DNA of 64,000 nt from Rhodothermales bacterium. Lineage in GTDB: Bacteria; Bacteroidota; Rhodothermia; Rhodothermales; Bin80. The position numbers and the translations under genes are program-made. Where the stretch lies: NCBI GenBank assembly GCA_958296045.1, contig CATQHT010000003.1, positions 878,028 through 942,027 on the forward strand, read 5' to 3'. Shown in pieces: positions 8,567 through 28,689 of the stretch. The notes beneath the pieces are model-generated. The model was not told where the DNA came from. It saw only the letters and a list, made by a program, of their open reading frames with translations, and did no database searches. Every line of letters starts with the position of its first letter. Position 1 is the first letter of the stretch.

Positions 8567-10369
8567 GTGATGCGCCCGCTCGCCCGCACCCTTCATTATT
8601 TTGTTGACTATCAGCGTCTCTTTGTACCGGGCCTGCTATACACGGTAATCGGTGCAGGATTCACTATAGCGGTGCCTGTGGTGGTACGTCAGGCCGTGGA
8701 CAGCATTCCGCGTTTCGTCACGTTATTTCGCCAGTTCGAGGGTTCCGAGGTACAGGGGCAGCTGTTTGCGGACTTTTTCTGGGTGCTGTTATTGTTCGGT
8801 CTTGTGGTGGCTGGACTGAGCATTTTGAGCGGCTACTGCACCTTTCTGATGCGCCAGACCGTGGTGGTGGCTTCACGCCATATTGAGTTTGACCTTCGCA
8901 ACCGACTGTTCAGCCATCTGCAGACGTTGTCGCGCGACTTTTACCTGAAGAGCGCCACCGGCGACCTCATCACGCGGTGCACCAGCGATATTGAGCAGGT
9001 ACGGCGCTACATCGGTCCCGCCGTTATGTACATCACGCGCACCGTGGTGATCATTGTGGTGGCAATCGTTGCGATGTTCCTTATTTCGCCCACGCTGGCG
9101 CTGTACGCGCTGCTCCCGATGCCCTTTCTCACGGTGGCAGTTTTCTATGTTTCCAAGTACATCCATATCAGAAGTGAGCAGCTCCAGCGGCAGTATTCCA
9201 AGCTAACCAGCCGGGTGCACGAGGCACTGACCGGCATCAGAGTCCTCAAAGCCTACACGCGCGAAGAAGGGGAAGCCAAGGCTTTTGAAAAGGAGAGCGC
9301 CCTGTACAAGGAGCGCATGCTTGGCTTCGCGATCGTGGACGCGGCATTTCGTCCGCTGTTTGTCCTGGTGGTGGCGGTGTCGGAGATTTTGGTCGTCTGG
9401 ATCGGTGGCGGTCTGGTGGCCGAAGGTGCAATAACTATAGGCAACATCGCGGAGTACATCATCTATGTGGCGCTTATGACATGGCCTGCCGCCACCGTGG
9501 GCATGGTGGTAACCATGGTGCAGCGGGCTTCAGCGTCGATGGAGCGCATCACCGAGGTGCTCGACCAGGAGCCTGCCGTCTGCGACGGAGCGCAGACCAA
9601 CACCGGTATCCGCGCCATACGGGGTGCTGTCTCGTTTGAAGATGTGTCGTTTCGTTACGAGGGGGATGATGCCTGGGCACTCAGGCATGTGTCGTTTGAC
9701 ATCCCTGCAGGCAGTACGCTAGCGATTGTCGGCCGTACGGGTTCAGGTAAGACGACGCTAATTGAGCATGTTGTGCGCCTTCTGGACCCAACCCAGGGCA
9801 CCGTGCGCGTGGATGGCCACGACGTTCGCACCTTGCCACTTGGGATGTTGCGCGAGGCGGTGGGCTTCGTTCCGCAGGATGTGTTCTTGTTCAGCGACAC
9901 GGTAGGCGGCAACATTGCCTTTGGTCGTACGGGAGCAGCTCAGCCCGACATCGAAACGGCCGCGTATGAGGCCGAGCTTCTGGACAATGTACAGGACTTC
10001 CCCGCCGGCTTTGACACGCAGGTTGGCGAGCGTGGCGTCGCCCTGTCTGGGGGTCAGAAGCAGCGCACGACCATCGCTCGTTCGCTGATACGCGAGTCGC
10101 AGATCCTGATTTTGGATGATGCGCTCAGTAGTGTTGATTCGAAAACGGAGCACCGTATCCTCGGCCATCTGCGGCGGCGTTTTGGCAGGCAGACGCTGGT
10201 CATTGTCAGTCACCGCATCTCCACCGTTCAGGACGCAGACCTGATTCTGGTGCTAGAGCAGGGTCGCGTCACGCAGCGCGGCACGCACGAGTCACTGACC
10301 GCGGTTGATGGCCTGTATTCCAGGCTCTATCGTCGGCAGCAGCTGGAGGCGGAACTGGAGGCGTTATGA
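8567..10369 (+). CDS. ABC exporter half-transporter (TMD+NBD), subunit with degenerate Walker B
   Basis: Hydrophobic N-half; GRTGSGKT, LSGGQKQR, ILDDALS (Asp in place of the catalytic Glu). Confidence 0.93.
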   Translation: MMRPLARTLHYFVDYQRLFVPGLLYTVIGAGFTIAVPVVVRQAVDSIPRFVTLFRQFEGSEVQGQLFADFFWVLLLFGLVVAGLSILSGYCTFLMRQTVVVASRHIEFDLRNRLFSHLQTLSRDFYLKSATGDLITRCTSDIEQVRRYIGPAVMYITRTVVIIVVAIVAMFLISPTLALYALLPMPFLTVAVFYVSKYIHIRSEQLQRQYSKLTSRVHEALTGIRVLKAYTREEGEAKAFEKESALYKERMLGFAIVDAAFRPLFVLVVAVSEILVVWIGGGLVAEGAITIGNIAEYIIYVALMTWPAATVGMVVTMVQRASASMERITEVLDQEPAVCDGAQTNTGIRAIRGAVSFEDVSFRYEGDDAWALRHVSFDIPAGSTLAIVGRTGSGKTTLIEHVVRLLDPTQGTVRVDGHDVRTLPLGMLREAVGFVPQDVFLFSDTVGGNIAFGRTGAAQPDIETAAYEAELLDNVQDFPAGFDTQVGERGVALSGGQKQRTTIARSLIRESQILILDDALSSVDSKTEHRILGHLRRRFGRQTLVIVSHRISTVQDADLILVLEQGRVTQRGTHESLTAVDGLYSRLYRRQQLEAELEAL

Positions 10370-11310
10370 AGCTTGTTCCTCTTGGCACCAGTGCGGCTTC
10401 GCTGGCGCATGGACGCCACCCGGCCTCCCTGGCTTTGGTGAGGGAGGGGCAGATCCTTTTGTTCGACTGTGGGGACGGTACGCTTTCGCGGCTCATCAGC
10501 GCTACGCTCAATCACGGAAAGATCGCGGCCATCTTTATTTCGCACCTGCATGGCGACCATTATCTGGGCCTGTTCGGACTGCTTAATGCGATGTCGCGCA
10601 GGGATCGCAGCGCTCCGCTAGTAGTGGTAGCTCCAAAGCTCCTATCCCAGGTGATGGCACAATTGCCTGGGGTAAGAGCACGCGACTTAACTTTTCCTGT
10701 TGAGCTTGTTGCCACTGAGGAGGCCATAGCGCAGCCTGTTGTATACCAGACCCGGGCGTACAAGGTGGAGGCACGGCAAATGGACCACGGGACAGCTTTT
10801 GCGGTGGGGTATCGCTTGGAGGAGCATGTTCGCCCAGGCCGCCTTGACGTGGCTTCTGCGATGGAGCTGGGCATCACTGGCTTTAGAGACTTCTGGCGCC
10901 TGAAGAACGGTGAATCGGTCCATAACGCTGATGGCCGTCTAGTAACGCCCGATATGGTACTGGGCCCGCCCCCTCCTGTCCAGATCTTTGCGTATACGGG
11001 GGATACGCGCCCATGTAGAGGCGCCATCCAACTGGCCCAAGACGCTACGTTGTTCGTCCATGACGCTACGTTTGCTGATGAGCATCGGCGAAAGGCTGAA
11101 CTCACCGGGCATTCCACGGCGGTGCAGGCCGCAAAAGTCGCGCAAGAGGCGGGGGTCTCAAGGCTGCTGCTCACACATTTTAGCGCCCGATACAAAGATC
11201 TAGCACTACTGGTGAACCAAGCCCGGCAGGTATTTCCAGAGACAGAGGCGGCGCGGGAGCTTCATCCCGTCATTTTAGATGCCCGCCCAACCCCATTGCG
11301 GGTGGAGTGA
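10366..11310 (+). CDS. rnz: Ribonuclease Z
   Basis: LGTSA, FDCG, SHLHGDH, GPP exosite arm, YTGDTRP, HDATF, GHST, THFSARY. Confidence 0.9.
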   Translation: MKLVPLGTSAASLAHGRHPASLALVREGQILLFDCGDGTLSRLISATLNHGKIAAIFISHLHGDHYLGLFGLLNAMSRRDRSAPLVVVAPKLLSQVMAQLPGVRARDLTFPVELVATEEAIAQPVVYQTRAYKVEARQMDHGTAFAVGYRLEEHVRPGRLDVASAMELGITGFRDFWRLKNGESVHNADGRLVTPDMVLGPPPPVQIFAYTGDTRPCRGAIQLAQDATLFVHDATFADEHRRKAELTGHSTAVQAAKVAQEAGVSRLLLTHFSARYKDLALLVNQARQVFPETEAARELHPVILDARPTPLRVE

Positions 11311-13079
11311 TGGCAGATAAGAGGGGTTTGGACGGTCGCATCTTGCGTCGCATTGTAGGGTATCTCATGCCCTACAAGCACTGGGTGCTTCTGGCGTTCG
11401 TGTTGGTGATGGTGGCTGCTTTTGTGGGGCCGGTGCGGCCGAAGCTCGTGCAGCTTGCCATTGACGACTACATCGTTCCGAACGACCTCACAGGGATCCA
11501 CGTGATTATTCTGCTGCTGCTCGGTGCAGCAGTGGTCGAGGCAGTACTCGGATTCATCAATGCGTACTTCACGCAGTGGATTGGTCAGAGCGCCATCTAT
11601 GACGTGCGCGTACGTGTGTACCGCCACATTCAGCGCCAGCCGCTGGGCTTCTTTGACCGCACGCCGATCGGGCGACTGATTACGCGGACAACCAGCGATG
11701 TGGAGTCACTGAGCGATGTGCTTTCTGCCGGGGTTGTCCTGATTATGGGAGACCTGTTTCGGCTGGTCTTCATCACGGCCTTCATGTTTTCCTTAGACTG
11801 GGTGCTGGCGATCGTCACTTTGTGCGCGATGCCGTTCATGTTGTGGGTTACCAACTGGTTCAAGCGAAGTGTCCGCGCGGAGTATCGCCAGGTGCGCAAA
11901 CAGGTGGCCCGCCTCAACGCGTTCCTCCAGGAGCACATCACGGGGATGAAGATCGTGCAGCTCTTCGGCCGGGAAAAGGAGGAGATTAAGGCCTTTGTCA
12001 AGATCAACGACCATCACCGCAGCGCGCACCTCAAGACGGTGTTTTACCACTCGCTGTTCTGGCCAGCCGTGGACATCCTGGCCACCTCCACCATCGGACT
12101 TGTGCTTTGGGTTGGCGGGATCCGTGCACTGGCGGGCGGGCTGACTGTGGGCGTGCTTATCGCCTTTGTGCAGTACGCCCGCCAGTTTTTTCAGCCGATA
12201 CGTAACCTGTCCAACCAATTCAATACGCTGCAGTCGGCTATGGCGGGCGCCGAGCGCATCTTCGATGTTCTTGACCGCGACTATTCGCTTCGCGAGCCTT
12301 CGGGCCCCATCCCTGCCGACGTGATCGAGGGACACATAGAGTTTCGCGGCGTATGGTTCAGCTATTCTGAGGAGCCCGATTGGGTGCTCCGTGACGTGTC
12401 ATTCACGATCACTCCTGGGCAGACCGTGGCCATCGTCGGTGCGACTGGCAGCGGCAAGACCACCATCATAAGCCTGCTGTTACGTTTCTACGATATCCAA
12501 AAGGGTCAGATACTTTTGGACGGGCGCGACATCTGCACGTACAGGCTGGGCTATCTCCGTTGGCGTATCGGGCTAGTGCTGCAGGATGCTTTTCTGTTTT
12601 CAGGGTCTGTGGAAAGGAACATATCGTTGGGCCATCCAGATGTCACGCTGGATCAGGTACGTCGGGCGGCAGAGTCTATTGGTGCCAATGAGTTTATTGA
12701 GCGTTTGCCGGGGGGATACCAGCACGATGTGCATGAGCGTGGCAAGTCGTTGTCACATGGCCAGCGGCAGCTGCTTTCGTTTATCCGCGTGTTGGTATAT
12801 GATCCAGACTTATTGGTGCTGGACGAGGCGACATCCAGCGTGGATACCGAGACAGAGCACACGATTCAGCGCGCGCTGGGCAAGCTTTTGAAGAACCGAA
12901 CATCGCTCATTATTGCGCATCGTCTTTCCACGATCCGCCACGCTGACATGATTCTGGTGCTGCACAAGGGCAAGTTGCGCCAGCGCGGCACGCACGACGA
13001 GCTAATCGCCCAGGATGGTCTGTACCACACGTTATACGCCCTCCAATACAAGCACCAGGAGGTGGCAGCCGCTGCTTAG
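11307..13079 (+). CDS. ABC exporter half-transporter (TMD+NBD), partner subunit
   Basis: GATGSGKT, degenerate signature LSHGQRQ, VLDEATS, AHRLSTI. Confidence 0.93.
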   Translation: MMADKRGLDGRILRRIVGYLMPYKHWVLLAFVLVMVAAFVGPVRPKLVQLAIDDYIVPNDLTGIHVIILLLLGAAVVEAVLGFINAYFTQWIGQSAIYDVRVRVYRHIQRQPLGFFDRTPIGRLITRTTSDVESLSDVLSAGVVLIMGDLFRLVFITAFMFSLDWVLAIVTLCAMPFMLWVTNWFKRSVRAEYRQVRKQVARLNAFLQEHITGMKIVQLFGREKEEIKAFVKINDHHRSAHLKTVFYHSLFWPAVDILATSTIGLVLWVGGIRALAGGLTVGVLIAFVQYARQFFQPIRNLSNQFNTLQSAMAGAERIFDVLDRDYSLREPSGPIPADVIEGHIEFRGVWFSYSEEPDWVLRDVSFTITPGQTVAIVGATGSGKTTIISLLLRFYDIQKGQILLDGRDICTYRLGYLRWRIGLVLQDAFLFSGSVERNISLGHPDVTLDQVRRAAESIGANEFIERLPGGYQHDVHERGKSLSHGQRQLLSFIRVLVYDPDLLVLDEATSSVDTETEHTIQRALGKLLKNRTSLIIAHRLSTIRHADMILVLHKGKLRQRGTHDELIAQDGLYHTLYALQYKHQEVAAAA

Positions 13080-14309
13080 CGCGGCAGGTACGTCCTGCGA
13101 ACCGCCGGAGCTATCATCTTTGTTCTTGGGCTGCAGTGACTGGCGGAGGAATCAGATGGCGTTGGGAGAATACTCATGTCGCCGACGTAACTGCCACTGA
13201 GATCCAAGGCGATGCCGGATCGGAACGATACGGCGCATCAGCGTACGGGTCTCACCGTGGACGAGTCATCAGACCATCACGTGCATATCTCGATCCGTTG
13301 GCGACCTATGCCTCGTGGTTTGCCGGATCCTCAGTCTGGTCGTAGTCGAGACCATTGCGCTCTTGGATTCAACGGCACAGCCCGGTTTGGCACGGTTGCC
13401 GCAGGCAGACAATGCCCATGCATGCCCGAGAGGCAACTGATGCAAAAGCCGAATCCGTAGTTCAAGATCAGATGGGAGGACTAGTATTCGGCAGCTGCGT
13501 GTTGGGATACAGACTCGATTTCCTGCAGGCTGCCTTCCTTACCCTTATCGAAGCGGCGGGAATGCCTTCCGCGATACACGCGCCAGCCGTTTCAGGGCTT
13601 GCTGTGCGCCACGGACGGGCCAGCCACCGAGACTGACGGCCATGCCGGGCCAGAGACCTGGCCAGGGTCGCCATTCGCGAGTAGCCCGCATGCCACCGAG
13701 ATGCGGTTTGGGATCAGTGATTCCGAATTTGGGTTTTCGGTGGAGGAGAGGAATGGATCTGTTTTCGGTAGGCTACACGCACGCGGGTTGCAGAGGAGGC
13801 TGTCGAATGGTTCGAACGGGCAACAAGAAGCCACATTTGCGGCGCCATCTGTCCGCCCAATAGACTGCGACGGTCTTCCAGGAATCTAGAATCCCCGGTT
13901 CTCGTGTTCTTGACGTGCAATCCTTGAGGATCTGGAAGCGGAAGGCTCCAGCGGAGGCGGATGACAATACAACCTACCCCTCAACGCCACCCAAATTTGG
14001 AATCGCTGCTCTGGGACCCGTCGGCGGGCTTGATCCGAGGAGATGCCTTACTATATCGCCTTACGTATGCTTCGTACTCGCGAACAGCCAGCGGTTGCAT
14101 TGGGCGAATGGCCGGCGGCGGGTCTTGCAGCGGCATGCCCGCACGTTTCCCACTGGTGCTGAGCTCCACCAATTCGCTGCCTTCGGCCTCTGATCGGATG
14201 CTCCGAGGGATGGAACCTGGACTTCTGCCACATCGCGGCTTTGCCGTGACGCAACCGATCCGACCCAGAGCCGTAGTACAATTCGCTACTCGTTCAGGCG
14301 ATTGCTATT

Positions 14310-15659
14310 ATGAATAATGCGTATCGACAGGCTCCGGGATCGTCTGGAATCCGAAGCTCTGGGCTCGCGCTTCCTGCCGTATTGGGATGCTTCGTTATTG
14401 CGGCCTTCATTGCTGTTTCGTGCGGCCCTGCGCAAGCGCCACCGGACTCCGCTGTGATCGACACCACAGGCGTACAAATCGTGGCGGACAACCATGGGTT
14501 GAATTTTTCACAGCCCGAATCGATTATCGAAAGCGCCCGCGCACGGATCCTGACAAGCGATCCGCTAGGCAGTACAGCCCGGTGCACGCTGGGCGATTCG
14601 CCTGTTTTCCGAGTCGGCGATGACGAGACCGAAGAGGCGCAAATGTTTTCCAGGGTTCGGGGGATGGGCCGACTTACCGATGGATCGGTGGCGGTCGCCG
14701 AGCGGGCGAGCCGTGAGATACGCATCTTCGGGGGACACGGCCGATTTCTTCGCTCAATGGGCGGTCCGGGCGATGCTCCGGGGGAATTCCGCGATCCCTT
14801 CGTCCTCTGGGTACTTCCTGGCGACACTCTCTGGGTTGGCGATTATAGTCCCTATCGTTTCGTGGTATTCACCTCCGCGGGCGAGTTTGTACGCAATGTT
14901 GCGTTGGACCCGGTCTACGTGAATCCCTCGCACGCTGGAGGTGTGCTTGACAATGGAAGCTCTGTGAACGCATGGCAACAGCGCGCTCTCATTCGTGACT
15001 TCTCCGCTCCCGATACGCTAGTTGTAGAGATGCATGATCGGGACGGCCATCGGGTCAAGGAACTCTCCAGAATTGCTGGGCGCTCGTTTGGCCAAACTCG
15101 CGCGTCGGAACAATCAAACTTCTACTTCGGCAGGATCTTCGATTCCGACGGTTGGGCTGACGCGAGAGAACGCACTATCGCGCTGGCACACACCGCGACC
15201 CCCGAGGTCTACCTCTTTGACGAGACCTTCCGCCTCCGTTCGATCGTGCGTTGGCACGTTCCCGACCAAAGGGTGACCGCCGCCGATGTGCGGGCTTGGC
15301 GCAAGGAGTACATCGAGAGACAAAGCACAGCCGGCAGTACTTGGAGTGAGGAATTCGATAGTCCGCTGGTCAGCCGGGAACGTCCAGCAGCCGACCGGTT
15401 CCCGACATTCTCGAGCATACAGGTAGGACGAGACGGGCGCCTGTGGGTAAGACCGTACCGACGGCCGCGCGCGGAGCCTACCCGGTGGATGGGCTTTTCT
15501 CGCGATGGATCATTCCTTTGTCACCTTGAGCGCCTGCCGGAGGAGTCCAGCATCGATATATGGGAATTCGGGGCGGATTATGTGCTCGGGGTTTCCGTCA
15601 GCGTTAACGGGACTGATACGGTCGTAATGTACGCACTCACAACGCCTGGGGAGGCTTGA
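14310..15659 (+). CDS. Putative 6-bladed beta-propeller lipoprotein
   Basis: Hydrophobic signal ending in VSC; NHL-like repeats (GGPGDAPGEF, GDTLWVGD, VGRDGRLWV). Confidence 0.7.
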   Translation: MNNAYRQAPGSSGIRSSGLALPAVLGCFVIAAFIAVSCGPAQAPPDSAVIDTTGVQIVADNHGLNFSQPESIIESARARILTSDPLGSTARCTLGDSPVFRVGDDETEEAQMFSRVRGMGRLTDGSVAVAERASREIRIFGGHGRFLRSMGGPGDAPGEFRDPFVLWVLPGDTLWVGDYSPYRFVVFTSAGEFVRNVALDPVYVNPSHAGGVLDNGSSVNAWQQRALIRDFSAPDTLVVEMHDRDGHRVKELSRIAGRSFGQTRASEQSNFYFGRIFDSDGWADARERTIALAHTATPEVYLFDETFRLRSIVRWHVPDQRVTAADVRAWRKEYIERQSTAGSTWSEEFDSPLVSRERPAADRFPTFSSIQVGRDGRLWVRPYRRPRAEPTRWMGFSRDGSFLCHLERLPEESSIDIWEFGADYVLGVSVSVNGTDTVVMYALTTPGEA

Positions 15660-15953
15660 CCCATTTGTTATGCACTGCAGACCTGGGTAGCCGCTGCCGT
15701 TTACACAAACCGAGTGGCAGCATGTGCCGCATCGATACGGAGATTTCCGCATGCCGCCGATGCGGTGGCTATTGAGAGCAAGAGCGATCGCAGGCCCACC
15801 CAAGGTGTACTGAAATCATAACCAGTGGATATTGCCAATGGGACGCTCATCAGTGAGCGTCGAGAGGCCGTACAGCAAGAGTAGGAGTTATGAAGCGGCC
15901 TCGTCGCTACCACTTGTGCATCCGAGTCTGTTGCTTGGACGCGTCTAGGACCA

Positions 15954-17192
15954 TCACACCGGTTGCGCCGCATAAATCGTGAGCATTACTTCCGCATCGT
16001 CGAACACCCGAAACATTGGTCGCCGCCCAGAGAGCTCCAGACTCTCCTGCAATATGATGGGCACACCTTCCCCGCGTCCCTCCATCAGGAATTGACGGCC
16101 GATCTTCCCTGTTGGATCCTCGACCCGGCACTTGGCCAGCAGTGTCGTCAGCAGTTCATTGCGAGTTGATTGCCGAAACTCAATGGAATCAACCGTGACA
16201 GAGTTCGGTAGCGGGCCGGGCGAATAGAGTTCCAGCCGATCTGCGAACATCAACAGGCGAATCTTTGATCCGTGCACGGAATAGTCGCGATGCGCCACCG
16301 CGTTCACGATAGCCTCAAAGGCGGCACGCAGACTGAACTGCGGGATGTCCACGCGCCCGGGGGCCTTGCGAGCGGCCACCCTCATGTTGCGCCGAACAAA
16401 AGTCATCGCCTCTGCGACCTGCTCGTCCAATGATCCAGTGATATCTCGGGCATCTACCTGATAGTTTCCATCCTGGCGAGTTCCTTGATAGCATACTGCT
16501 TGAATAAATGCACCAGGGAGCCACCGCTGCGGACTCGAAGAGCACATCAGGATTCCGCCTACGGTTGCACGCGCTTCCCTTGACTCGTCGTTCGTGACGA
16601 GCTTCATTTTCTTGAACGTAACAAGGTCGGCAGCATCGGGCATTGAGAAGCAGCGCCGCCGATCCGGTTCGAGATCGACGAACGTCGTCCCAGGCACCGC
16701 CTGTTCCTCGAATCGGTACCGATGGGCCTGACTTCGCTGCTGACCGAGGCGCAGCAGGTAGTCGGTAGGGATCTGTCGCTTTGAACTGCCCTGCCTATGA
16801 AAGTAACCTCCGGGGCTTTTGTGAAGGTACAGGCCGCGCGGAACTTCGACCTTGAGGAGGGGCCGCAACTCACCCGCTGCATCAGGGAGCTCCACGCGGA
16901 TAGCATAGAACCGCAGCGGTGGTTCGATGCTATCGTTGCAAATTTCGGAAACGTACTGATCGACCAAGTCTAGTCGCTCGACCGGTATCCCGACGATGTC
17001 TCGCGTCCTATCATCAACGCCAAGCACCAGGACTCCACCTCGCGAATTGGCAAACGCCGCAAGTTCGTCTGCCAGCGTTTCGCGGCGTGGACCCCTTACT
17101 CTGTCTCCCTTGAATGACACATCCTTCAGCTCAAGCGAACTGTCTTCGCCCAGCTTTATCCTGCGTAGCAACTCCCCAGGGCTATCAGTCAT
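15954..17192 (-). CDS. Schlafen/AlbA_2 domain + HATPase_c_4 (RecG C-terminal-like) protein
   Basis: GEDSSLELK and AAFANSRGGVLVLGVDD (AlbA_2); EAIVNAVAHRDY, DRLELYSPG, RN, GEG (HATPase_c_4). No C-terminal wHTH. Confidence 0.88.
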   Translation of the reverse strand: MTDSPGELLRRIKLGEDSSLELKDVSFKGDRVRGPRRETLADELAAFANSRGGVLVLGVDDRTRDIVGIPVERLDLVDQYVSEICNDSIEPPLRFYAIRVELPDAAGELRPLLKVEVPRGLYLHKSPGGYFHRQGSSKRQIPTDYLLRLGQQRSQAHRYRFEEQAVPGTTFVDLEPDRRRCFSMPDAADLVTFKKMKLVTNDESREARATVGGILMCSSSPQRWLPGAFIQAVCYQGTRQDGNYQVDARDITGSLDEQVAEAMTFVRRNMRVAARKAPGRVDIPQFSLRAAFEAIVNAVAHRDYSVHGSKIRLLMFADRLELYSPGPLPNSVTVDSIEFRQSTRNELLTTLLAKCRVEDPTGKIGRQFLMEGRGEGVPIILQESLELSGRRPMFRVFDDAEVMLTIYAAQPV

Positions 17193-19932
17193 CCGATACC
17201 CCGGCGACTATGCGGCGATACCGCTCCTTGAAGGCATCCAGGCCTCCTTCCATAAGCGTGCAAATGCTTGCCCGTACGCCCTTTTTTAGAAGACTGCCTT
17301 CAGACTCTATCTTCGTATCGTTGTCCTTAGCAGCAAGCGCTACCACGAGCTCGGCATCGCCGTTGACGACAATGTTAGGGTTGTGCGTTACCACAATGAT
17401 CTGCCGGCGCTGTTTTTCTTTACGTATCTGATTGACGATCAGTTCGTGAACCAACCGGTTATCAAGGTCATCCTCGGGCTGATCCAGTACGAGGGGTTGC
17501 TTTCCGTATGAGAGCAGAAACGCCAAAAGCGCTGCGGTCTTCTGACCTGGCGATCCCGCACTGATGGGTCGAAGGTGCCTACCATCTCCGGTCGGACTGT
17601 ACTCGACTTTAAGGTGATCTTCGGGAAACCACATGTCGAGGCGATCAAACACTTCTGGCTGTAAATTGCCAAGGTGGTTCGCGAATCTACGGTCCACGGG
17701 ACTACAAGTGCCTTCACGAATGCGACGAACCTTTTCCGTAATGCCTGTAATCGCCGTTTCGACTGCTGCCGAGCCGCTCTGGTTCTCTTGAGCCTGTTTG
17801 AGCGCCTGCAGGAGACGATCAATGTCCCCCCTGAAGGTGTCGTCCTCTTTCTGGATCAGGCGACGGAAGTCAGCCTCGACGGTCTTTTGCTCTCCGTAGG
17901 GAACGATGTGCATACGCACATAGGGATTCCCTTGCAGTACGCCTTCCAGGAAGCGGCGGCGGATCCTGGTACGCTCCCTGCGGATATTCAATAGCTCACG
18001 CCGGCTGTCGTCTGCTTGGCACTTTAGCTTCACCACTTCCGTTTTCCGACTCTTCAAACGGTCCAAGTCCTGCTCGATGAGCTGCCGGCGTTGCACGAGC
18101 AACCCATAGTCGGACGGATCACTGATCCCTTCTTCTGCCAGCTGCTTGGAAAGAGATTCATACGCAGCTACAGCCTCGTTGGCCGCTTTTTTCCAAGCCG
18201 ACTTCTCGAGTTCTTTCTTCCACCGTGTTACCGTCTCGTCCGCTTCGTCTGCGACTTGTTCCAGCTGCTTACGGATTGCTCCAAGCCGGTCCCGAGCACG
18301 ATGTGCCTGTGTTAGGAGCTGCAAGTCCGCCTGAGACCCACCAAAGGTGTTAGCCTCGTCAAGAGCGTCTGGAACAATGTCCGCTGCCGTGGTCCGTATT
18401 CGCTTGCCCGCGTCGACCCATTGCTCCTCCCACATCCGAATTTCTCTCTGCTGGCGCCGGTTCTGCTGATAAGCTCGTAGGATATCTGCATGGCCACTCC
18501 TCTCGAAGACCGCCAGCTTCCTTTTCACATCGTCAAGTTCCCCCTTAAGCTTATTCTCATCCTGCAACTCGGCGCCGATCTGTCGAACCTTCACCCGTAT
18601 TGACAGAATGTTGTGTTCCTCCCGACTCCAGCGGCTTTTCAAAGGCTGCTGGTCCCCGTCCGACGCCTCGTCCACGATGCGAAGCAACTCGCCAGGTGTG
18701 GTCGCTGCGTGAAAGATCTGTTTCTGACTGTATATGCGAACAGGAAAACGCTGGACCACCTTACCAGGCGCCTGCGACCACACTCCGTTTGCCGTCTCTT
18801 CCTCGATGGCATCCAGTGCGCCCTTTGGGTCCCACTGTACCCGAAATCTCGCCCCATTCTTCAAATAGATCACGCGAAACTTCGTCCGTTCTGTTAGCAG
18901 CCCATTGCCGTCTGGAGGCTCATTGGAATACATTGCAAACTCCTTACGCAACTCCTCGGGCAACTCGCCATCGCGGCGCAAGGCAATCCGCAGAAACTCA
19001 ACCAGCGACGATTTTCCGGTGCCTCGTCCTCCGATAATGGCATTCAACCACGGGTTGAGGTCCACCTTGAATGGGCTTCCCTGACCCATGTACTTTGTGC
19101 CCGTCACCTCGATAGACTCCAGTACCGCCTCGGCATGTTGCTCGTTCGGCGAAGTGGGGTGGGTATCGGAGCGACGCACCGACAGGGAGCCATCCAGCAA
19201 AGCCAGCCGCAACCCCTCAATATCTGGAGGGTCGCCCATCTTAACCCAAGTGAAATGGCTTCCAGGATAACGTTGCCCCTCCTTGCCGGAACAATGGTGA
19301 GAATCGGAGCCGACAATCTCGGTCCAGCCCACCTTCATGTCGCGGTAGAGCTGCGGCTTTTCGCTTTGGGGGCACCGGATCTCCGTGGCAAATACCTGAT
19401 CGCAACGCAATGCCTCTTTCAATGTGTCGCCACTAGCCTCCGTGAGCAGGCCCTTTTCGCAGTCAGCGTGCGCTGGAATGGCTATACCACCCGAATTCAC
19501 AATCTGTTTGACCACCTTCCTGAAGGGCTCCCTTGTCTGTGTACTCGTCCCCTCAACAACTCCAACAGCACCAAGCAGACCGATTATATCTGACCTGGTT
19601 TTCTCACGGGAGAAAATAGCAAGCAGGTGCACGTTTCCATGCACAGCAATCTCGACCCCTGGAAACAAGTACAGAGGCCGGAATCCCGCAGGTCTTGCCA
19701 GCACCAATTTCTCTAGGTCCGCTTTAAGACGATCGATCCAGCCACCGCCGTTGTGGTCCGTAACCGCTACACAGTCAACTCCTGCACGCATGTAGCCGAG
19801 TAGCCAATCCCGCGGCGTACACTGCTGTTCTTCCTCTTGATTCGGTCCCTTCCCGTAGTCTGTTGATGCTGGGGTATGCGTGTGAAGGTCACACTTCCAC
19901 CATCGGGCTCCGTTCCAGCTCTGCAGCGACAT
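17185..19932 (-). CDS. PHP-domain + SMC/ABC-type ATPase (TrlF/Ppl-like, putative anti-phage)
   Basis: PHP motifs DLHTHTPAS, TDHN, GVE, HLL, PAH, GSDSH; Walker A IIGGRGTGKS; long coiled coil; SPGQK signature, LDQPEDDLD, VTHN. Confidence 0.88.
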   Translation of the reverse strand: MSLQSWNGARWWKCDLHTHTPASTDYGKGPNQEEEQQCTPRDWLLGYMRAGVDCVAVTDHNGGGWIDRLKADLEKLVLARPAGFRPLYLFPGVEIAVHGNVHLLAIFSREKTRSDIIGLLGAVGVVEGTSTQTREPFRKVVKQIVNSGGIAIPAHADCEKGLLTEASGDTLKEALRCDQVFATEIRCPQSEKPQLYRDMKVGWTEIVGSDSHHCSGKEGQRYPGSHFTWVKMGDPPDIEGLRLALLDGSLSVRRSDTHPTSPNEQHAEAVLESIEVTGTKYMGQGSPFKVDLNPWLNAIIGGRGTGKSSLVEFLRIALRRDGELPEELRKEFAMYSNEPPDGNGLLTERTKFRVIYLKNGARFRVQWDPKGALDAIEEETANGVWSQAPGKVVQRFPVRIYSQKQIFHAATTPGELLRIVDEASDGDQQPLKSRWSREEHNILSIRVKVRQIGAELQDENKLKGELDDVKRKLAVFERSGHADILRAYQQNRRQQREIRMWEEQWVDAGKRIRTTAADIVPDALDEANTFGGSQADLQLLTQAHRARDRLGAIRKQLEQVADEADETVTRWKKELEKSAWKKAANEAVAAYESLSKQLAEEGISDPSDYGLLVQRRQLIEQDLDRLKSRKTEVVKLKCQADDSRRELLNIRRERTRIRRRFLEGVLQGNPYVRMHIVPYGEQKTVEADFRRLIQKEDDTFRGDIDRLLQALKQAQENQSGSAAVETAITGITEKVRRIREGTCSPVDRRFANHLGNLQPEVFDRLDMWFPEDHLKVEYSPTGDGRHLRPISAGSPGQKTAALLAFLLSYGKQPLVLDQPEDDLDNRLVHELIVNQIRKEKQRRQIIVVTHNPNIVVNGDAELVVALAAKDNDTKIESEGSLLKKGVRASICTLMEGGLDAFKERYRRIVAGVSDD

Positions 19933-20039
19933 TACCTCAGCGTCTTGGATTGATCCTTTTGAAGGGGACGACATGGGGGTGGAGGGTCATATTGAGTGGA
20001 TGGTACGCCATTCCAAGGGGAATTGTGGCAGGACCAGGA

Positions 20040-20220
20040 GGGGGAGATTATCCGGTCTCCCTCAACGCAGCATCCTTTTTCCATGCCACTACCGGAACCT
20101 GATCCTGCATCTCCTGCGATATGCGGCGAAGAGATGGCATGCGCCGGCGGCCGGCGGTTGTATTTGCTGAAGCAATGCAACCTGATTATCGAGTTGCTGG
20201 GTCGCGAGTGGCCCGATCCT
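20040..20220 (+). mobile_element. Possible IS256-type transposase C-terminal relic
   Basis: Translation LFPCHYRNLILHLLRYAAKRWHAP loosely resembles the IS256 C-terminal FP...L..L.LR..AK.W..P pattern; highly degenerate. Confidence 0.25.
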
Positions 20221-20298
20221 CCGTTGCAATCCTTGGCGGCGTCTGGCAACGTCACATCAGCATTGCAGGGGGCCACAGAGGCCTGGTAGCAGCTCTTT

Positions 20299-21250
20299 CA
20301 GAATGCGCCTACAATAATGATTCACTTTTGGAATCGGCGTAAGATTGCATGGCGGGCTGGTTTGCACTTCGGATTGCGGGAGGTTCGCTCCTGAAGCCAG
20401 CGAGTCATGGCATTCAGAGTGTCCGTTTGGCTTGTTTATCCTGGCGGAATTGGGCGGTGTCGCGGCGGTGGGTGGTCACTTGGGAAGCGTTCGGGTTGAT
20501 CGTCGCAAGCCTTGTTGAGCACGACCAGACGGGCGTTTTGCACGGTCTCAGCGAGTTCGTAGGGTACCACATCGGGATACGCGAGCGCCAGACCGGTGTG
20601 GTGATATTCGCGATTTCACCATTGACAGAACCCGTTGGCCCATGCTTTGGCATCCTCGAGTGGTCCGAAGCGCCGCGGATAGGTTGGCCGGTACTTCATG
20701 GTCTTGAATTGTGCTTCTGGATACGGGTTGTCGTTGGAGGTGTACGGGCGTGTGAACGATCGTTCTTCGCGCAGATCGTTGAGCAGCTGCACGACAGGCG
20801 TCGATGTCATGGGACTTCCCCGATCGCTGTGGATCACCAGTTGATCGGGCCGTATGCCTTGGCGGTGGCAGGTGGTCTTGATCAAGGCGTGTGCCAGACG
20901 GAAGGACTCGCAGTCGGCGAGGGTCCATCCCACGACGAATCGGCTGAAGACGTCTATGATAGCGTAGAGCGCATAGTGGGTCCATCTGCGCGGTCCCTTG
21001 AGCGTGGTGATTTCCCACGACCCGAGCATGTAGCTGCGCGAAGGCCACAGCTCCGGGCTGCTCACCCCTGCGGGTTCAGGATCGGACCTTCAGAGTCGTG
21101 TGGGCGCTGGGCGCGCCTTACATCTGGCCCCATTGCCGCAGCAGCATTTACGCGCTCGTATGGGAAGGCCCTTGCAGCACTATCATAAGCGAACAAACCC
21201 GAGCCGGACAGCCACGGCCCCTGGCATCCACATTCGTGACCAGCAGCCAT
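20299..21250 (-). mobile_element. IS3-family integrase/transposase relic (frameshifted) with right end
   Basis: WEITTLKGPRRWTHYALYAIIDVFSRFVVGW, HSDRGSPM, SFTRPYTSNDNPYPEAQFKTMKYRP; multiple frameshifts; terminal sequence homologous to 53720-53783 and 58592-58700. Confidence 0.88.
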
Positions 21251-26968: not shown

Positions 26969-28147
26969 ATGCTTTCGTGCCAACGTGACCTCTTCACGCT
27001 GCCGGATGATGCGCACTACATCAATTGCGCGTACATGTCCCCGCTCCTTAAGTCCGCAGAGCGTGCAGGAATAGCAGGCCTCCATCGTAAGCGCGTCCCC
27101 AGCGTGATTCGGCCAGCCATGTTTTTTGAGGAAAGCAGGCAGGCTCGCCAGCTTTTTGCTGCGCTTGTTGGGGTGCAGGCCAGCGATGTCGCGATCATTC
27201 CTTCAGCCTCATACGGAATCGCTACGGTTGCCCGCAACATCCAAGTCAAGCCGCATCAGAACATCGTGCTGCTGCATGAGCAGTTTCCGAGCAACGTGTA
27301 CGCATGGCGACGCTTGGCCCGTGAGCGCGGTGCGACCATCCGCACTATCGCACCACCGCCAGGGCTGGCGCGCGCCGCCGGGCTCAACGATCGCCTCCTC
27401 GCGGCCATTGACCATGATACCGCAGTCGTGGCGGTGGGCCCGGTTCACTGGGCTGACGGCACCTGCGTGGACCTGAAGGCGCTTAGCCAACGTGCCCGCC
27501 ATGTGGGCGCCGCCTTTGTTGTCGATGGGACCCAGTCCGTAGGCGCGATGCCAATGGATGCCGATGCTCTTGGCATCGATGCCTTGATTTGCGCAAGCTA
27601 CAAATGGATGCTCGGTCCGTATGGTATGGGGGCCATGTTCGTTGGCCCACGCTTCAGGCAAGGAATACCCTTGGAAGAGACGTGGCTGGCTCGGCAGGGG
27701 AGCGAAGACTTCAGCGCACTGGTCGCCTATGGCGACAAGTATCGCCCAGGCGCCGAACGGTATGATATGGGTGGACGAAGCAACTTCATTCTGCTTCCCA
27801 TGATGATTGAAGGGCTTAAACAGCTTTTAGCCTGGGATCAGTCCAGCATCCAGCGCTACTGTCGCCACCTTATGAAAGAAACGCTAGTGGAAGTCCGTTC
27901 ACTAGGGTACCAAGTCCTGGGCGGCACCAGCGCACACCTCTTCGGTCTGCGCGTGCCAGACCACGTCTTAAGGCCACGGCTGCAGCAGGCACTGGCGGAT
28001 CGCGGGGTTTCCGTATCGCTGCGTGGTAAAGCAATTCGGATCTCGCCGCATGTCTACAACAATGTGCAGGACGTGGAAGCGCTTCGCGACGCGCTCGAAG
28101 CGGCCGCGGCGCGAGCCACCGACCGCACCTACAGCGTATTGACCTGA
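26969..28147 (+). CDS. Aminotransferase class V (cysteine desulfurase/selenocysteine lyase-like)
   Basis: YINCAYMSP, QFPSN, DGTQSVG, ASYKWMLGPYG (PLP lysine), IRISPHVYN. Confidence 0.9.
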   Translation: MLSCQRDLFTLPDDAHYINCAYMSPLLKSAERAGIAGLHRKRVPSVIRPAMFFEESRQARQLFAALVGVQASDVAIIPSASYGIATVARNIQVKPHQNIVLLHEQFPSNVYAWRRLARERGATIRTIAPPPGLARAAGLNDRLLAAIDHDTAVVAVGPVHWADGTCVDLKALSQRARHVGAAFVVDGTQSVGAMPMDADALGIDALICASYKWMLGPYGMGAMFVGPRFRQGIPLEETWLARQGSEDFSALVAYGDKYRPGAERYDMGGRSNFILLPMMIEGLKQLLAWDQSSIQRYCRHLMKETLVEVRSLGYQVLGGTSAHLFGLRVPDHVLRPRLQQALADRGVSVSLRGKAIRISPHVYNNVQDVEALRDALEAAAARATDRTYSVLT

Positions 28148-28632
28148 CCGGCACTTTCTGAGAGCGCGAACAGCGATTCCAGAAAAGCATGTGCGTGCCT
28201 GTATACGCCTGGCTGTTCGCTTTCCCGGGGTCCTGCCACGTTGAGCGTCCGAATCCGGTGCCGCCGCAACCATCGAGCCACAGTCAGGAGTGCGTCATTT
28301 CGCTTTTGGTCCCAGTCGGCCTGCAGCAGCGGCTTGCCGAACTCCCGAGCCGCTTCTACGGTGGCTGCTGTGCCCACTGAGGTGGCCACGGTGCCCAGAA
28401 TCAGGGTACCGTCACTATCGCGCACATTCCACCGCGTCCGCAGCAAATACCGGGCTGAGGGTGTCTCTCGTAGCGGATAGGTGGCACTGATTGTGCCATC
28501 TTCTGCTCTGCGCTCGGCTGGACACCAGCCCCCGATCGGAAGCCCGCATGCCTGCGCTGCATCCAGCGCGGCCCGGTCCACTCCCGTCTGGCCACCGGAC
28601 ACCACGGCTACCGGGAACACGTCATGCCCCAT
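28129..28632 (-). CDS. Putative molybdenum carrier / YpsA-like SLOG protein
   Basis: SGGQTGVDRAALD, GGWCP..RRAEDG, RTRWNVRDSDGT, LNVAGPRES. Confidence 0.88.
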   Translation of the reverse strand: MGHDVFPVAVVSGGQTGVDRAALDAAQACGLPIGGWCPAERRAEDGTISATYPLRETPSARYLLRTRWNVRDSDGTLILGTVATSVGTAATVEAAREFGKPLLQADWDQKRNDALLTVARWLRRHRIRTLNVAGPRESEQPGVYRHAHAFLESLFALSESAGQVNTL

Positions 28633-28689
28633 TGCGCAATTCATTGGCTCGTCGAACATCGGCCCGGCGCACCAGTTGCAGGGTCCACC

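Follow-up and report, generated by a model that had tools for sequence, protein, structure and literature searches.

A trlF–trlG gene pair in a Rhodothermales bacterium as a candidate mobile TRL-type defence cassette

The 'temperature restriction locus' (TRL) of the insect pathogen Photorhabdus laumondii consists of the genes trlR, trlF and trlG (Hapeshi et al. 2020, PMC7554251). In that report TrlG is composed of AlbA_2 and HATPase_c_4 domains and TrlF is the product of a 'histidinol phosphatase' gene. Transcription of the locus is induced on temperature up-shift, growth at 36 °C is restored by trlG mutations or by deletion of the operon, and all mutations mapped in the suppressor screen described there were in trlG and none in the larger trlF. 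TRL-like operons were recorded in other genera, including plasmid pYR3 of Yersinia ruckeri (PMC7554251). Here we describe a locus of this kind in a 64,000-nucleotide stretch of the genome of a Rhodothermales bacterium (contig CATQHT010000003.1, positions 878,028–942,027), hereafter referred to as the window. The initial annotation of this stretch did not know the pairing as a named system. The two genes correspond to trlF–trlG of the Photorhabdus locus, and NCBI annotates the family of the first one as TrlF; the locus is therefore a member of an already named gene pair, its components belong to known defence families, and it does not represent a new kind of system. In the literature that was searched, trlF and trlG are discussed as this gene pair only in the Photorhabdus report; both words also appear in one paper on tropone natural products.

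Ppl (Gao_Ppl or PplA) is a single-gene anti-phage system of Escherichia coli, and PARIS combines the ABC ATPase AriA with the TOPRIM tRNase AriB. The Ppl protein is described as a single-stranded DNA 3'-5' exonuclease that acts on 3'-OH ends (PMC12904381); it is held off by nucleoside triphosphates in its PHP and NTPase domains and is toxic in cells without RecBCD (PMC12904381; 10.64898/2026.09.30.755081). Prokaryotic Schlafens (pSlfn) are reported to protect against phage through tRNA cleavage, and the Slfn domain joined to a histidine-kinase-like ATPase without a helix-turn-helix (HTH) domain is their commonest architecture (34% of 5,930 proteins; PMC13056530). Among the seven pSlfn systems for which tests in E. 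coli are reported there, only the DUF262 and Ig-like fusions protected. For the Slfn–GHKL unit, also termed 'Schlatpase', both ATP binding and ATP hydrolysis by the GHKL part are reported (10.64898/2026.05.29.728809). Neither PHP, Ppl nor TrlF is mentioned as a Schlafen partner in the main texts of PMC13056530 and 10.64898/2026.05.29.728809, and the main text of the PADLOC/Hma paper contains no mention of PHP, Schlafen or Ppl. In the supplementary tables of PMC13056530 other than files 13–17, 'Gao_Ppl__PplA' occurs 76 times among the pSlfn defence neighbours. Ppl and the prokaryotic Schlafens (PMC13056530) are published anti-phage members of the two families to which the genes of the locus belong.

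With moderate confidence we read the locus as a mobile TRL-type (trlF–trlG) defence cassette in which two effectors would be expressed together, an exonuclease acting on DNA ends and an RNase that arrests growth. The cassette moves horizontally, and its most likely role is to guard the cell against phages or other foreign DNA. This reading is supported by the coupling of the two genes, their co-inheritance and co-divergence across phyla, the conserved active sites, the variable, repeat- or defence-rich DNA in which the genes reside, their patchy distribution, their carriage on plasmids and their association with insertion sequence (IS), TnpB and intron genes.

The locus contains two intact open reading frames (ORFs) on the minus strand. 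The first, at 17185–19974 (929 aa, P0001), is trlF-like and encodes a PHP phosphoesterase fused to an SMC/Rad50-like ABC ATPase, as indicated by the TrlF and Ppl models and an AlphaFold2 (AF2) model. The second, at 15954–17192 (412 aa, P0002), is trlG-like and encodes a Schlafen (AlbA_2) domain followed by a GHKL ATPase, a 'Schlatpase' without winged HTH (Pfam, AF2, fold matches). The stop of P0001 and the start of P0002 have ATGACTGA in common, an 8-bp overlap at 17185–17192 on the minus strand (junction ...GGATGACTGATAG...), by which the genes are, to judge from the junction, translationally coupled. The two intact overlapping genes noted at the outset are thus present, and that they form a real pair is upheld by this coupling and by the co-inheritance and co-divergence considered below. 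For P0001 an alternative start, the ATG at 19932 that the initial annotation used, would yield a protein of 915 aa; as residues 1–17 are disordered in the structural model, this ATG may be the true start. A scan of 15500–20500 returned no promoter-like sites and seven terminator-like ones, against 4.6 ± 2.3 expected. Stretches of both genes are covered at 100% identity by contigs of one RNA library (X4); none of these contigs spans the junction, and they could stem from DNA carry-over. They provide no more than a weak hint that the pair is transcribed.

P0001 was matched over residues 21–922 to positions 1–943 of the NCBIfam model TrlF_fam_ATP (NF045780) with 602 bits (cut-off 350; E = 3e-180), a score far beyond chance. 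The match to the Ppl_antiphage equivalog (NF042955) amounted to 532 bits, under its cut-off of 1000, and that to the PADLOC Ppl model to 1.5e-133. Pfam recognised only the ABC/SMC parts (AAA_21 at residues 789–869; SMC_N), and the C-lobe partially matched the LmuB (4e-15, residues 477–869) and AriA (1e-11, residues 789–869) models. In the AF2 model (predicted local distance difference test score, pLDDT, 88.2; predicted template modelling score 0.76) a PHP barrel spans residues ∼24–268 and an ABC head residues 283–437 and 787–923, its two lobes being separated by a long helical insertion. The PHP domain (residues 24–268; 19171–19905, minus strand, as all features of the pair) has all metal-ligand positions by alignment columns (H31, H33, D39, D73/H74, E108, H116, H169, D224 and H226) and matches the fold of the PHP phosphoesterase 2anu (1.7e-7). 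The ATPase N-lobe (residues 283–437; 18664–19128) carries the Walker A motif GRGTGKS at 19009–19029. It is followed by the coiled-coil insertion with a small alpha/beta insert (residues 442–780; 17635–18651), delineated from the AF2 secondary structure and Foldseek, and by the C-lobe (residues 787–923; 17206–17616; Pfam AAA_21 and SMC_N) with the signature SPGQK, the Walker B motif LVLDQPEDD, in which Gln follows Asp, and the H-loop THN. Both the full set of PHP metal ligands and the DQ-type Walker B had been pointed out in the initial annotation, and both hold. Foldseek placed the head with the SMC, JetC, RecN, MukB and Rad50 heads with coiled coils (best match 5xei, 1e-12); neither the sequence nor the fold search with P0001 found a Ppl structure in the Protein Data Bank.

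P0002 scored 63.3 bits on Pfam SLFN_AlbA_2 over residues 16–141 (cut-off 25.3) and 61.4 bits on HATPase_c_4 over residues 308–405 (cut-off 26). The Schlafen domain, encoded at 16770–17147, contains D61 and the motif E16-x4-E21-x-K23 (EDSSLELK) at 17124–17147; the motif and a GVDD stretch align to the catalytic region of 5yd0, a SLFN13 N-domain chain. The GHKL ATP-binding domain (residues 288–405; 15978–16331) displays the N-box E293/N297, HRDY at 301–304 and G374-x-G376. Since the protein ends seven residues past this domain, it has no winged HTH, so that the earlier description of a Schlafen-type E....ExK motif without that domain fits well with the Pfam assignments. The AF2 model (pLDDT 88.6) matched 3lmm (2e-19), the N-domains of SLFN5/11/13/14, the tRNase domain of SAMD9 and the GHKL domains of histidine kinases and PDK. 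RNA or tRNA cleavage by the window TrlG is what membership in the Schlafen family would lead one to expect.

The residues on which activity should depend are retained in both families. Walker A Lys/Ser, D-Q-P-E and the H-loop His were found in 59/59 aligned TrlFs, and all ten PHP positions in 33 of 37 partnered ones, the deviating proteins being ownC and ownD of the present genome, L068 and L078. Among 39 TrlGs, E16, K23, D61 and N297 are each conserved in 38, E21 in 37, and G374 and G376 in all 39. Given this conservation of catalytic and nucleotide-binding residues, both enzymes look active. A PHP site that becomes dispensable once the partner is there was considered and ruled out by the intact positions in 33/37 partnered TrlFs. 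Some relatives deviate. The TrlF of own paralogue C (L003:1453-4164) has lost the PHP HxH (Q..N), with ATPase motifs and Schlafen partner intact, and on this pattern of residues may be a natural nuclease-dead variant. Three 643-aa relatives without a Schlafen partner (L104, L105 and L110, in G021, G014 and G015) are PHP-less and consist of the ATPase only (TrlF model 293–944). The TrlG homologue of Y. ruckeri pYR3 (L086:5989-7134) reads E-x4-Q-x-K, with Gln for the second Glu, and the TrlF beside it has TNHN, not TDHN.

In order to describe the distribution of the pair, relatives were collected by a pattern scan with one genome per species; the best 67 of 239 were fetched, a set biased to the clade of the query. 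In 59 of these 67 the match reached the TrlF C-terminus with at least 1.2 kb downstream, and these were taken as evaluable. A Schlafen–GHKL gene lay directly downstream on the same strand in 34/59 (L078 was counted as partnered after correction of an over-extended ORF start), and partnered loci were present in Acidobacteriota, Actinomycetota, Chloroflexota, Desulfobacterota, Pseudomonadota, Spirochaetota, Bacillota and one archaeon. Within the same taxonomic family TrlF occurred in 16/24 genomes, with up to four copies per genome (G001), and 13 of 14 evaluable full-length TrlFs had the partner. TrlF was found in none of 16 genomes from other families of the order and in 12 of 200 genomes across the phylum, where three of the ten TrlFs fetched were partnered.

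Over 37 pairs, the pairwise distances of TrlF and TrlG correlate with a Mantel r of 0.87, which 0 of 2000 permutations attained; inside the main clade r = 0.79. All 25 TrlFs scanned exceeded the TrlF cut-off, and only one, L071 from Pantoea (1326 bits), exceeded that of Ppl; in a midpoint-rooted FastTree without support values this true Ppl forms a partnerless twig inside a mostly partnered clade. The pair is also plasmid-borne: on p1 of Burkholderia thailandensis TrlF and a partner 54% identical to P0002 adjoin a relaxase and a PLD restriction enzyme, and further copies are carried by Y. ruckeri pYR3 and Pseudomonas plasmids. The pair is therefore old and inherited as a unit, neither gene being bound to the other.

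The genome of the window itself (G000, 4.78 Mb in four contigs) encodes four TrlFs over the family cut-off and two remnants. Besides the window gene, intact partnered TrlFs are located at C2:366532-369321 (minus strand), C3:758453-761167 (plus) and C2:300551-303535 (minus), with 464–600 bits on the TrlF model, and relics at C3:628428-628865 (minus) and C3:368011-368307 (plus). At all six loci, four intact and two relics, a same-strand Schlafen gene follows. Identity to the window pair is as low as 25%, and the intact pairs diverge in parallel (TrlF 25–55%, TrlG 30–71% identity). With the loci lettered A to F, TrlF and TrlG identities are 55% and 71% for A–B, 27% and 38% for A–D, 25% and 33% for A–C, and 27% and 30% for C–D. 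TrlF is mostly lost and the Schlafen gene split at locus E. Locus F combines a TrlF stump with stop codons and an intact TrlG that shares 87% identity with the one of locus D; a dN/dS of 0.49 (S_F vs S_D, a single pair) suggests that this orphan is under relaxed constraint. The paralogue loci sit among IS21, TnpB, ISL3, DDE-transposase and group II intron genes, and the TrlF of locus D is preceded in its operon by a NOV_C protein (L089:8976-10307, minus strand, DUF3883-like). Such a load in one genome, four diverged intact copies plus two relics, is unusual and new here.

The neighbourhoods of 34 partnered loci were scanned through 110 flanking ORFs within 4 kb. Methylase- or restriction-type neighbours were found at 12/34 loci and helicase–NOV_C proteins at two more; five further loci had other conflict-type neighbours (AAA_21 with DUF4276, a second Schlafen–GHKL, TPR-CHAT, a STAND-like ATPase and Fic), and at one a transposase was the sole neighbour of note, giving 19–20 of 34 with conflict-type or transposase neighbours in total. 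NOV_C or helicase–NOV_C genes stand directly upstream of TrlF at L089, L029, L048 and L053, and DUF1156 or Eco57I-type methylases occupy this position at other loci; these upstream neighbours suggest BREX-related or Hma-like operons as a frequent setting of the cassette. In an Acidimicrobiales genome, a second Schlafen–GHKL gene (L024:2162-3913, plus strand), longer at 584 aa, lies directly upstream of a TrlF–TrlG pair.

As a defence cassette, the pair might work as follows. The exposed DNA ends of an invader would be the target of TrlF. The same mRNA would yield TrlG, which would form a second, abortive layer by cleaving RNA and thereby halting translation. Both proteins appear to have a nucleotide-binding switch of their own, so that they may answer the same cue, possibly a collapse of the nucleotide pool or DNA ends. 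TrlG would be able to fire without TrlF, which would accordingly be no strict gate. The four divergent copies of the present genome could be modules of different specificity.

Several observations weigh against reading the locus as a phage defence cassette. The sole phenotype recorded for a TRL is the temperature-dependent growth arrest (PMC7554251), and no paper in the searched literature brings together Ppl, Schlafen and phage. As only the DUF262 and Ig-like fusions protected, the histidine-kinase-type pSlfn constructs included in the reported tests did not, although TrlF was possibly absent from them (PMC13056530). The Gln at the second motif Glu of the pYR3 TrlG implies that the RNase chemistry may not be family-wide. 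Next to the pair in the window lie a lipoprotein-like ORF and genes for transporters and cytochromes, none of them a defence gene, and 14/34 partnered loci had no recognised defence neighbour. The phylum-wide sample has the partner with only three of ten TrlFs, and seven short Schlafen–GHKL genes in relatives have no trace of TrlF upstream, so that the link between the two genes is frequent, not obligate. Finally, the nesting of Ppl in a partnered clade depends on the midpoint-rooted tree without support values mentioned above.

A more specific version of the defence reading, which we regard as possible but doubtful, is a dual-effector module read by one cue. Collapse of the nucleotide pool or exposure of DNA ends would free DNA-end degradation and tRNA cleavage in parallel, the switches being the PHP and ABC sites of TrlF and the GHKL site of TrlG; TrlG would come in as the abortive fallback against phages that escape or block TrlF, Ppl would be a stripped-down descendant, and the four modules would be selected specificity variants. 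The literature treats Ppl as a one-gene system and Schlafen–GHKL proteins as stand-alone effectors, whereas most of the closest TrlF relatives carry both genes as a coupled, co-diverging unit, in which a nuclease that senses DNA ends is joined with a Schlafen RNase. This might be one reason why the histidine-kinase-type bacterial Schlafens failed in single-gene tests, and it offers a candidate account of the 'temperature restriction' of Photorhabdus as an immune effector misfiring on heat stress. The four diverged modules in one genome would provide a natural set for the comparison of specificities. To the published record the present analysis adds how widespread and how old the pairing is, and that Ppl appears to nest inside it.

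The gating of a Schlafen effector by the ATPase, put forward in the initial annotation, would make the locus an obligate, PARIS-like sensor–effector system in which TrlF, as sensor and scaffold, either keeps TrlG silent or switches it on in response to DNA ends or a phage protein, TrlG is the one lethal effector, and neither works alone. We consider this unlikely. The tight 8-bp coupling, the conserved gene order and the co-divergence of r = 0.87 are what such a system would display, and the ABC C-lobe weakly matches the AriA and LmuB models. In the present genome, TrlF-linked Schlafen–GHKL proteins end 0–8 residues after the GHKL domain and unlinked ones continue for 142–179 residues or more; TrlF could replace the sensing part that such an extension might form. 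Two partnerless TrlFs of the phylum sample have other RNase-type genes at the TrlG position, namely an Abi_C-domain protein that abuts TrlF and is followed by HsdR (L119:2791-3861, plus strand) and a HEPN protein downstream of TrlF (L123:1209-1787, minus strand), which look like, and may represent, effector swapping. Among the longer relatives of P0002 there are a few in-frame proteins combining the TrlF C-terminal half with TrlG, and deletion fusions (P0006 and P0028, 2/32 members of the best cluster, and P0019). Such fusions are seldom seen, not one of them is full-length, and errors of assembly or gene calling may have produced them, which makes the fusion search weak evidence of interplay.

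Set against this, the true Ppl functions as a single gene (PMC12904381), and many TrlFs have no partner, including those of a Bacteroidota-type clade and relatives 45–46% identical to P0001 in Hafnia, Pectobacterium and Klebsiella/Citrobacter plasmids, where they stand beside restriction-modification genes and a recombinase. The PHP active site retained in 33/37 partnered TrlFs indicates that TrlF is not reduced to a sensor. Were TrlF needed for the activation of TrlG, trlF mutants would be expected in the Photorhabdus screen, which as reported hit trlG repeatedly and never the larger trlF (PMC7554251). TrlF as a required restraint is opposed by the intact TrlG that stands beside a decayed TrlF at four sites, plus one truncated copy, and by short Schlafen–GHKL genes that occur without any TrlF; of the short genes in relatives, 14 follow an intact or split TrlF, four a remnant and seven no trace of TrlF, with two at contig ends. 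Searches for an interface weigh on neither side. A complex prediction with TrlF PHP (24–274), N-lobe (280–445) and C-lobe (762–929) and TrlG 1–412, the coiled coil being omitted because of its size, had a score of 0.00 (mark 0.32), and a comparison of 32 partnered with nine solo main-clade TrlFs yielded only positions 333, 640 and 866, scattered and unusable. With no trlF suppressors among the reported mutations, TrlG outlasting the decay of TrlF and both genes being found alone, strict gating becomes less likely, and the claim that the ATPase gates the Schlafen effector is left unsupported.

It is in our judgement improbable that the two genes are independent one-gene defence systems which share defence islands without functional interplay. 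Each gene is indeed found alone, as the Ppl-type solos and the seven solo short Schlafen–GHKL genes illustrate, neither protein lacks a regulatory domain that binds nucleotides, and defence genes cluster generally. However, unlike in ordinary neighbours, order, strand and near-zero spacing are kept across phyla and, within one genome, down to 25% identity; co-divergence of r = 0.87 is not expected of mere fellow travellers, though co-inheritance alone can give some, and at own locus E both genes are decaying together.

Similarly improbable is a role outside immunity, in which the cassette would respond to stress as a growth-arrest or addiction module, as has been proposed for the temperature restriction of Photorhabdus, and would thereby stabilise mobile DNA or adjust growth: the only experimental phenotype, the heat-induced 36 °C arrest relieved by trlG mutation or operon deletion (PMC7554251), and the frequency of the cassette on conjugative and mobilisable plasmids and among IS elements of the present genome would suit it, but trlR was not found here and no small upstream ORF of its kind is conserved among partnered loci (the largest cluster comprises four loci, and the sole upstream same-strand ORF at the window pair, 19932–20276, is of low complexity and lies in repeat DNA), orphan TrlG without TrlF opposes a toxin–antitoxin relation, the family members Ppl and pSlfn have proven anti-phage function, neighbourhoods are rich in restriction-modification genes, and a mis-triggered abortive-infection effector would also arrest growth on stress.

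Within the window the pair is flanked by an ABC-exporter/metallo-beta-lactamase operon and by genes for large cytochrome-c proteins. Its description as lying 'amid decayed DNA' is only partly apt. On the downstream flank, outside the system, there is a copy of a dispersed ∼260–290-bp repeat (13715–14009; more than 30 blastn matches of 72–87% identity in the genome), and the upstream flank (20075–21056) contains a short multi-copy repeat (20075–20245) and a decayed multi-copy element (20301–21056), which has broken-frame matches in the own genome by blastn and tblastn; a Pfam search of 20548–21048 (minus strand) within it gave no match. The ABC-exporter genes at 8567–13079 are, however, intact, as is a 449-aa ORF at 14310–15659 (plus strand) with a signal- or lipoprotein-like N-terminus, no Pfam family and weak genomic paralogues. 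About 8 kb from the pair, 28129–28659 (minus strand) encodes a circularly permuted YpsA protein of the SLOG family (Pfam cpYpsA, 2e-56). No tRNA genes were found in the window.

The locus can also be compared with the described systems one by one. PARIS is a mechanistic analogue only: both have an ABC-type ATPase and a translation-arresting nuclease, and the P0001 C-lobe weakly matches AriA, but no TOPRIM effector was found at the locus, TrlF carries its own nuclease domain, and the genetic and orphan-gene evidence opposes gating of TrlG by TrlF. For PARIS and Lamassu alike, the AriA and LmuB matches of P0001 are partial, and the locus has no TOPRIM, LmuA or LmuC gene. With Mre11–Rad50 and SbcCD, P0001 shares the combination of a phosphoesterase nuclease and an SMC-like coiled-coil ATPase, its fold matching Rad50, SMC, RecN and JetC heads; its nuclease is, however, of the PHP and not the calcineurin-like type and is fused in one chain, and TrlF is patchily distributed, multi-copy and mobile, unlike a core repair gene. 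P0002 has the commonest architecture of prokaryotic Schlafens, their E-x4-(E/D)-x-K motif and the fold of SLFN N-domains and GHKL kinases, whereas the systems reported as protective are DUF262 and Ig-like fusions, which differ from it in architecture (PMC13056530).

Ppl resembles P0001 in that both consist of a PHP exonuclease domain and a Rad50-like NTPase with coiled coil, the PADLOC Ppl model matches P0001, and the true Ppl L071 falls in the same clade on the unsupported tree. The differences are that P0001 remains below the Ppl cut-off and that Ppl stands alone, whereas the window TrlF has a coupled downstream Schlafen–GHKL gene. It is the TRL to which the locus corresponds as a whole, albeit as a distant branch: the window TrlF is 24–40% identical to that of pYR3 (local alignments), the small regulator trlR (about 79 aa) was not found upstream, and the window TrlG has E-x4-E-x-K, the second Glu of which is replaced by Gln in the pYR3 protein. 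P0001 passes the NCBI TrlF model, P0002 and the pYR3 TrlG homologue share 29% identity (9e-43), and a PHP-ATPase gene followed by an AlbA_2 and HATPase_c_4 gene in the same order and on the same strand reproduces the layout of the pYR3 operon.

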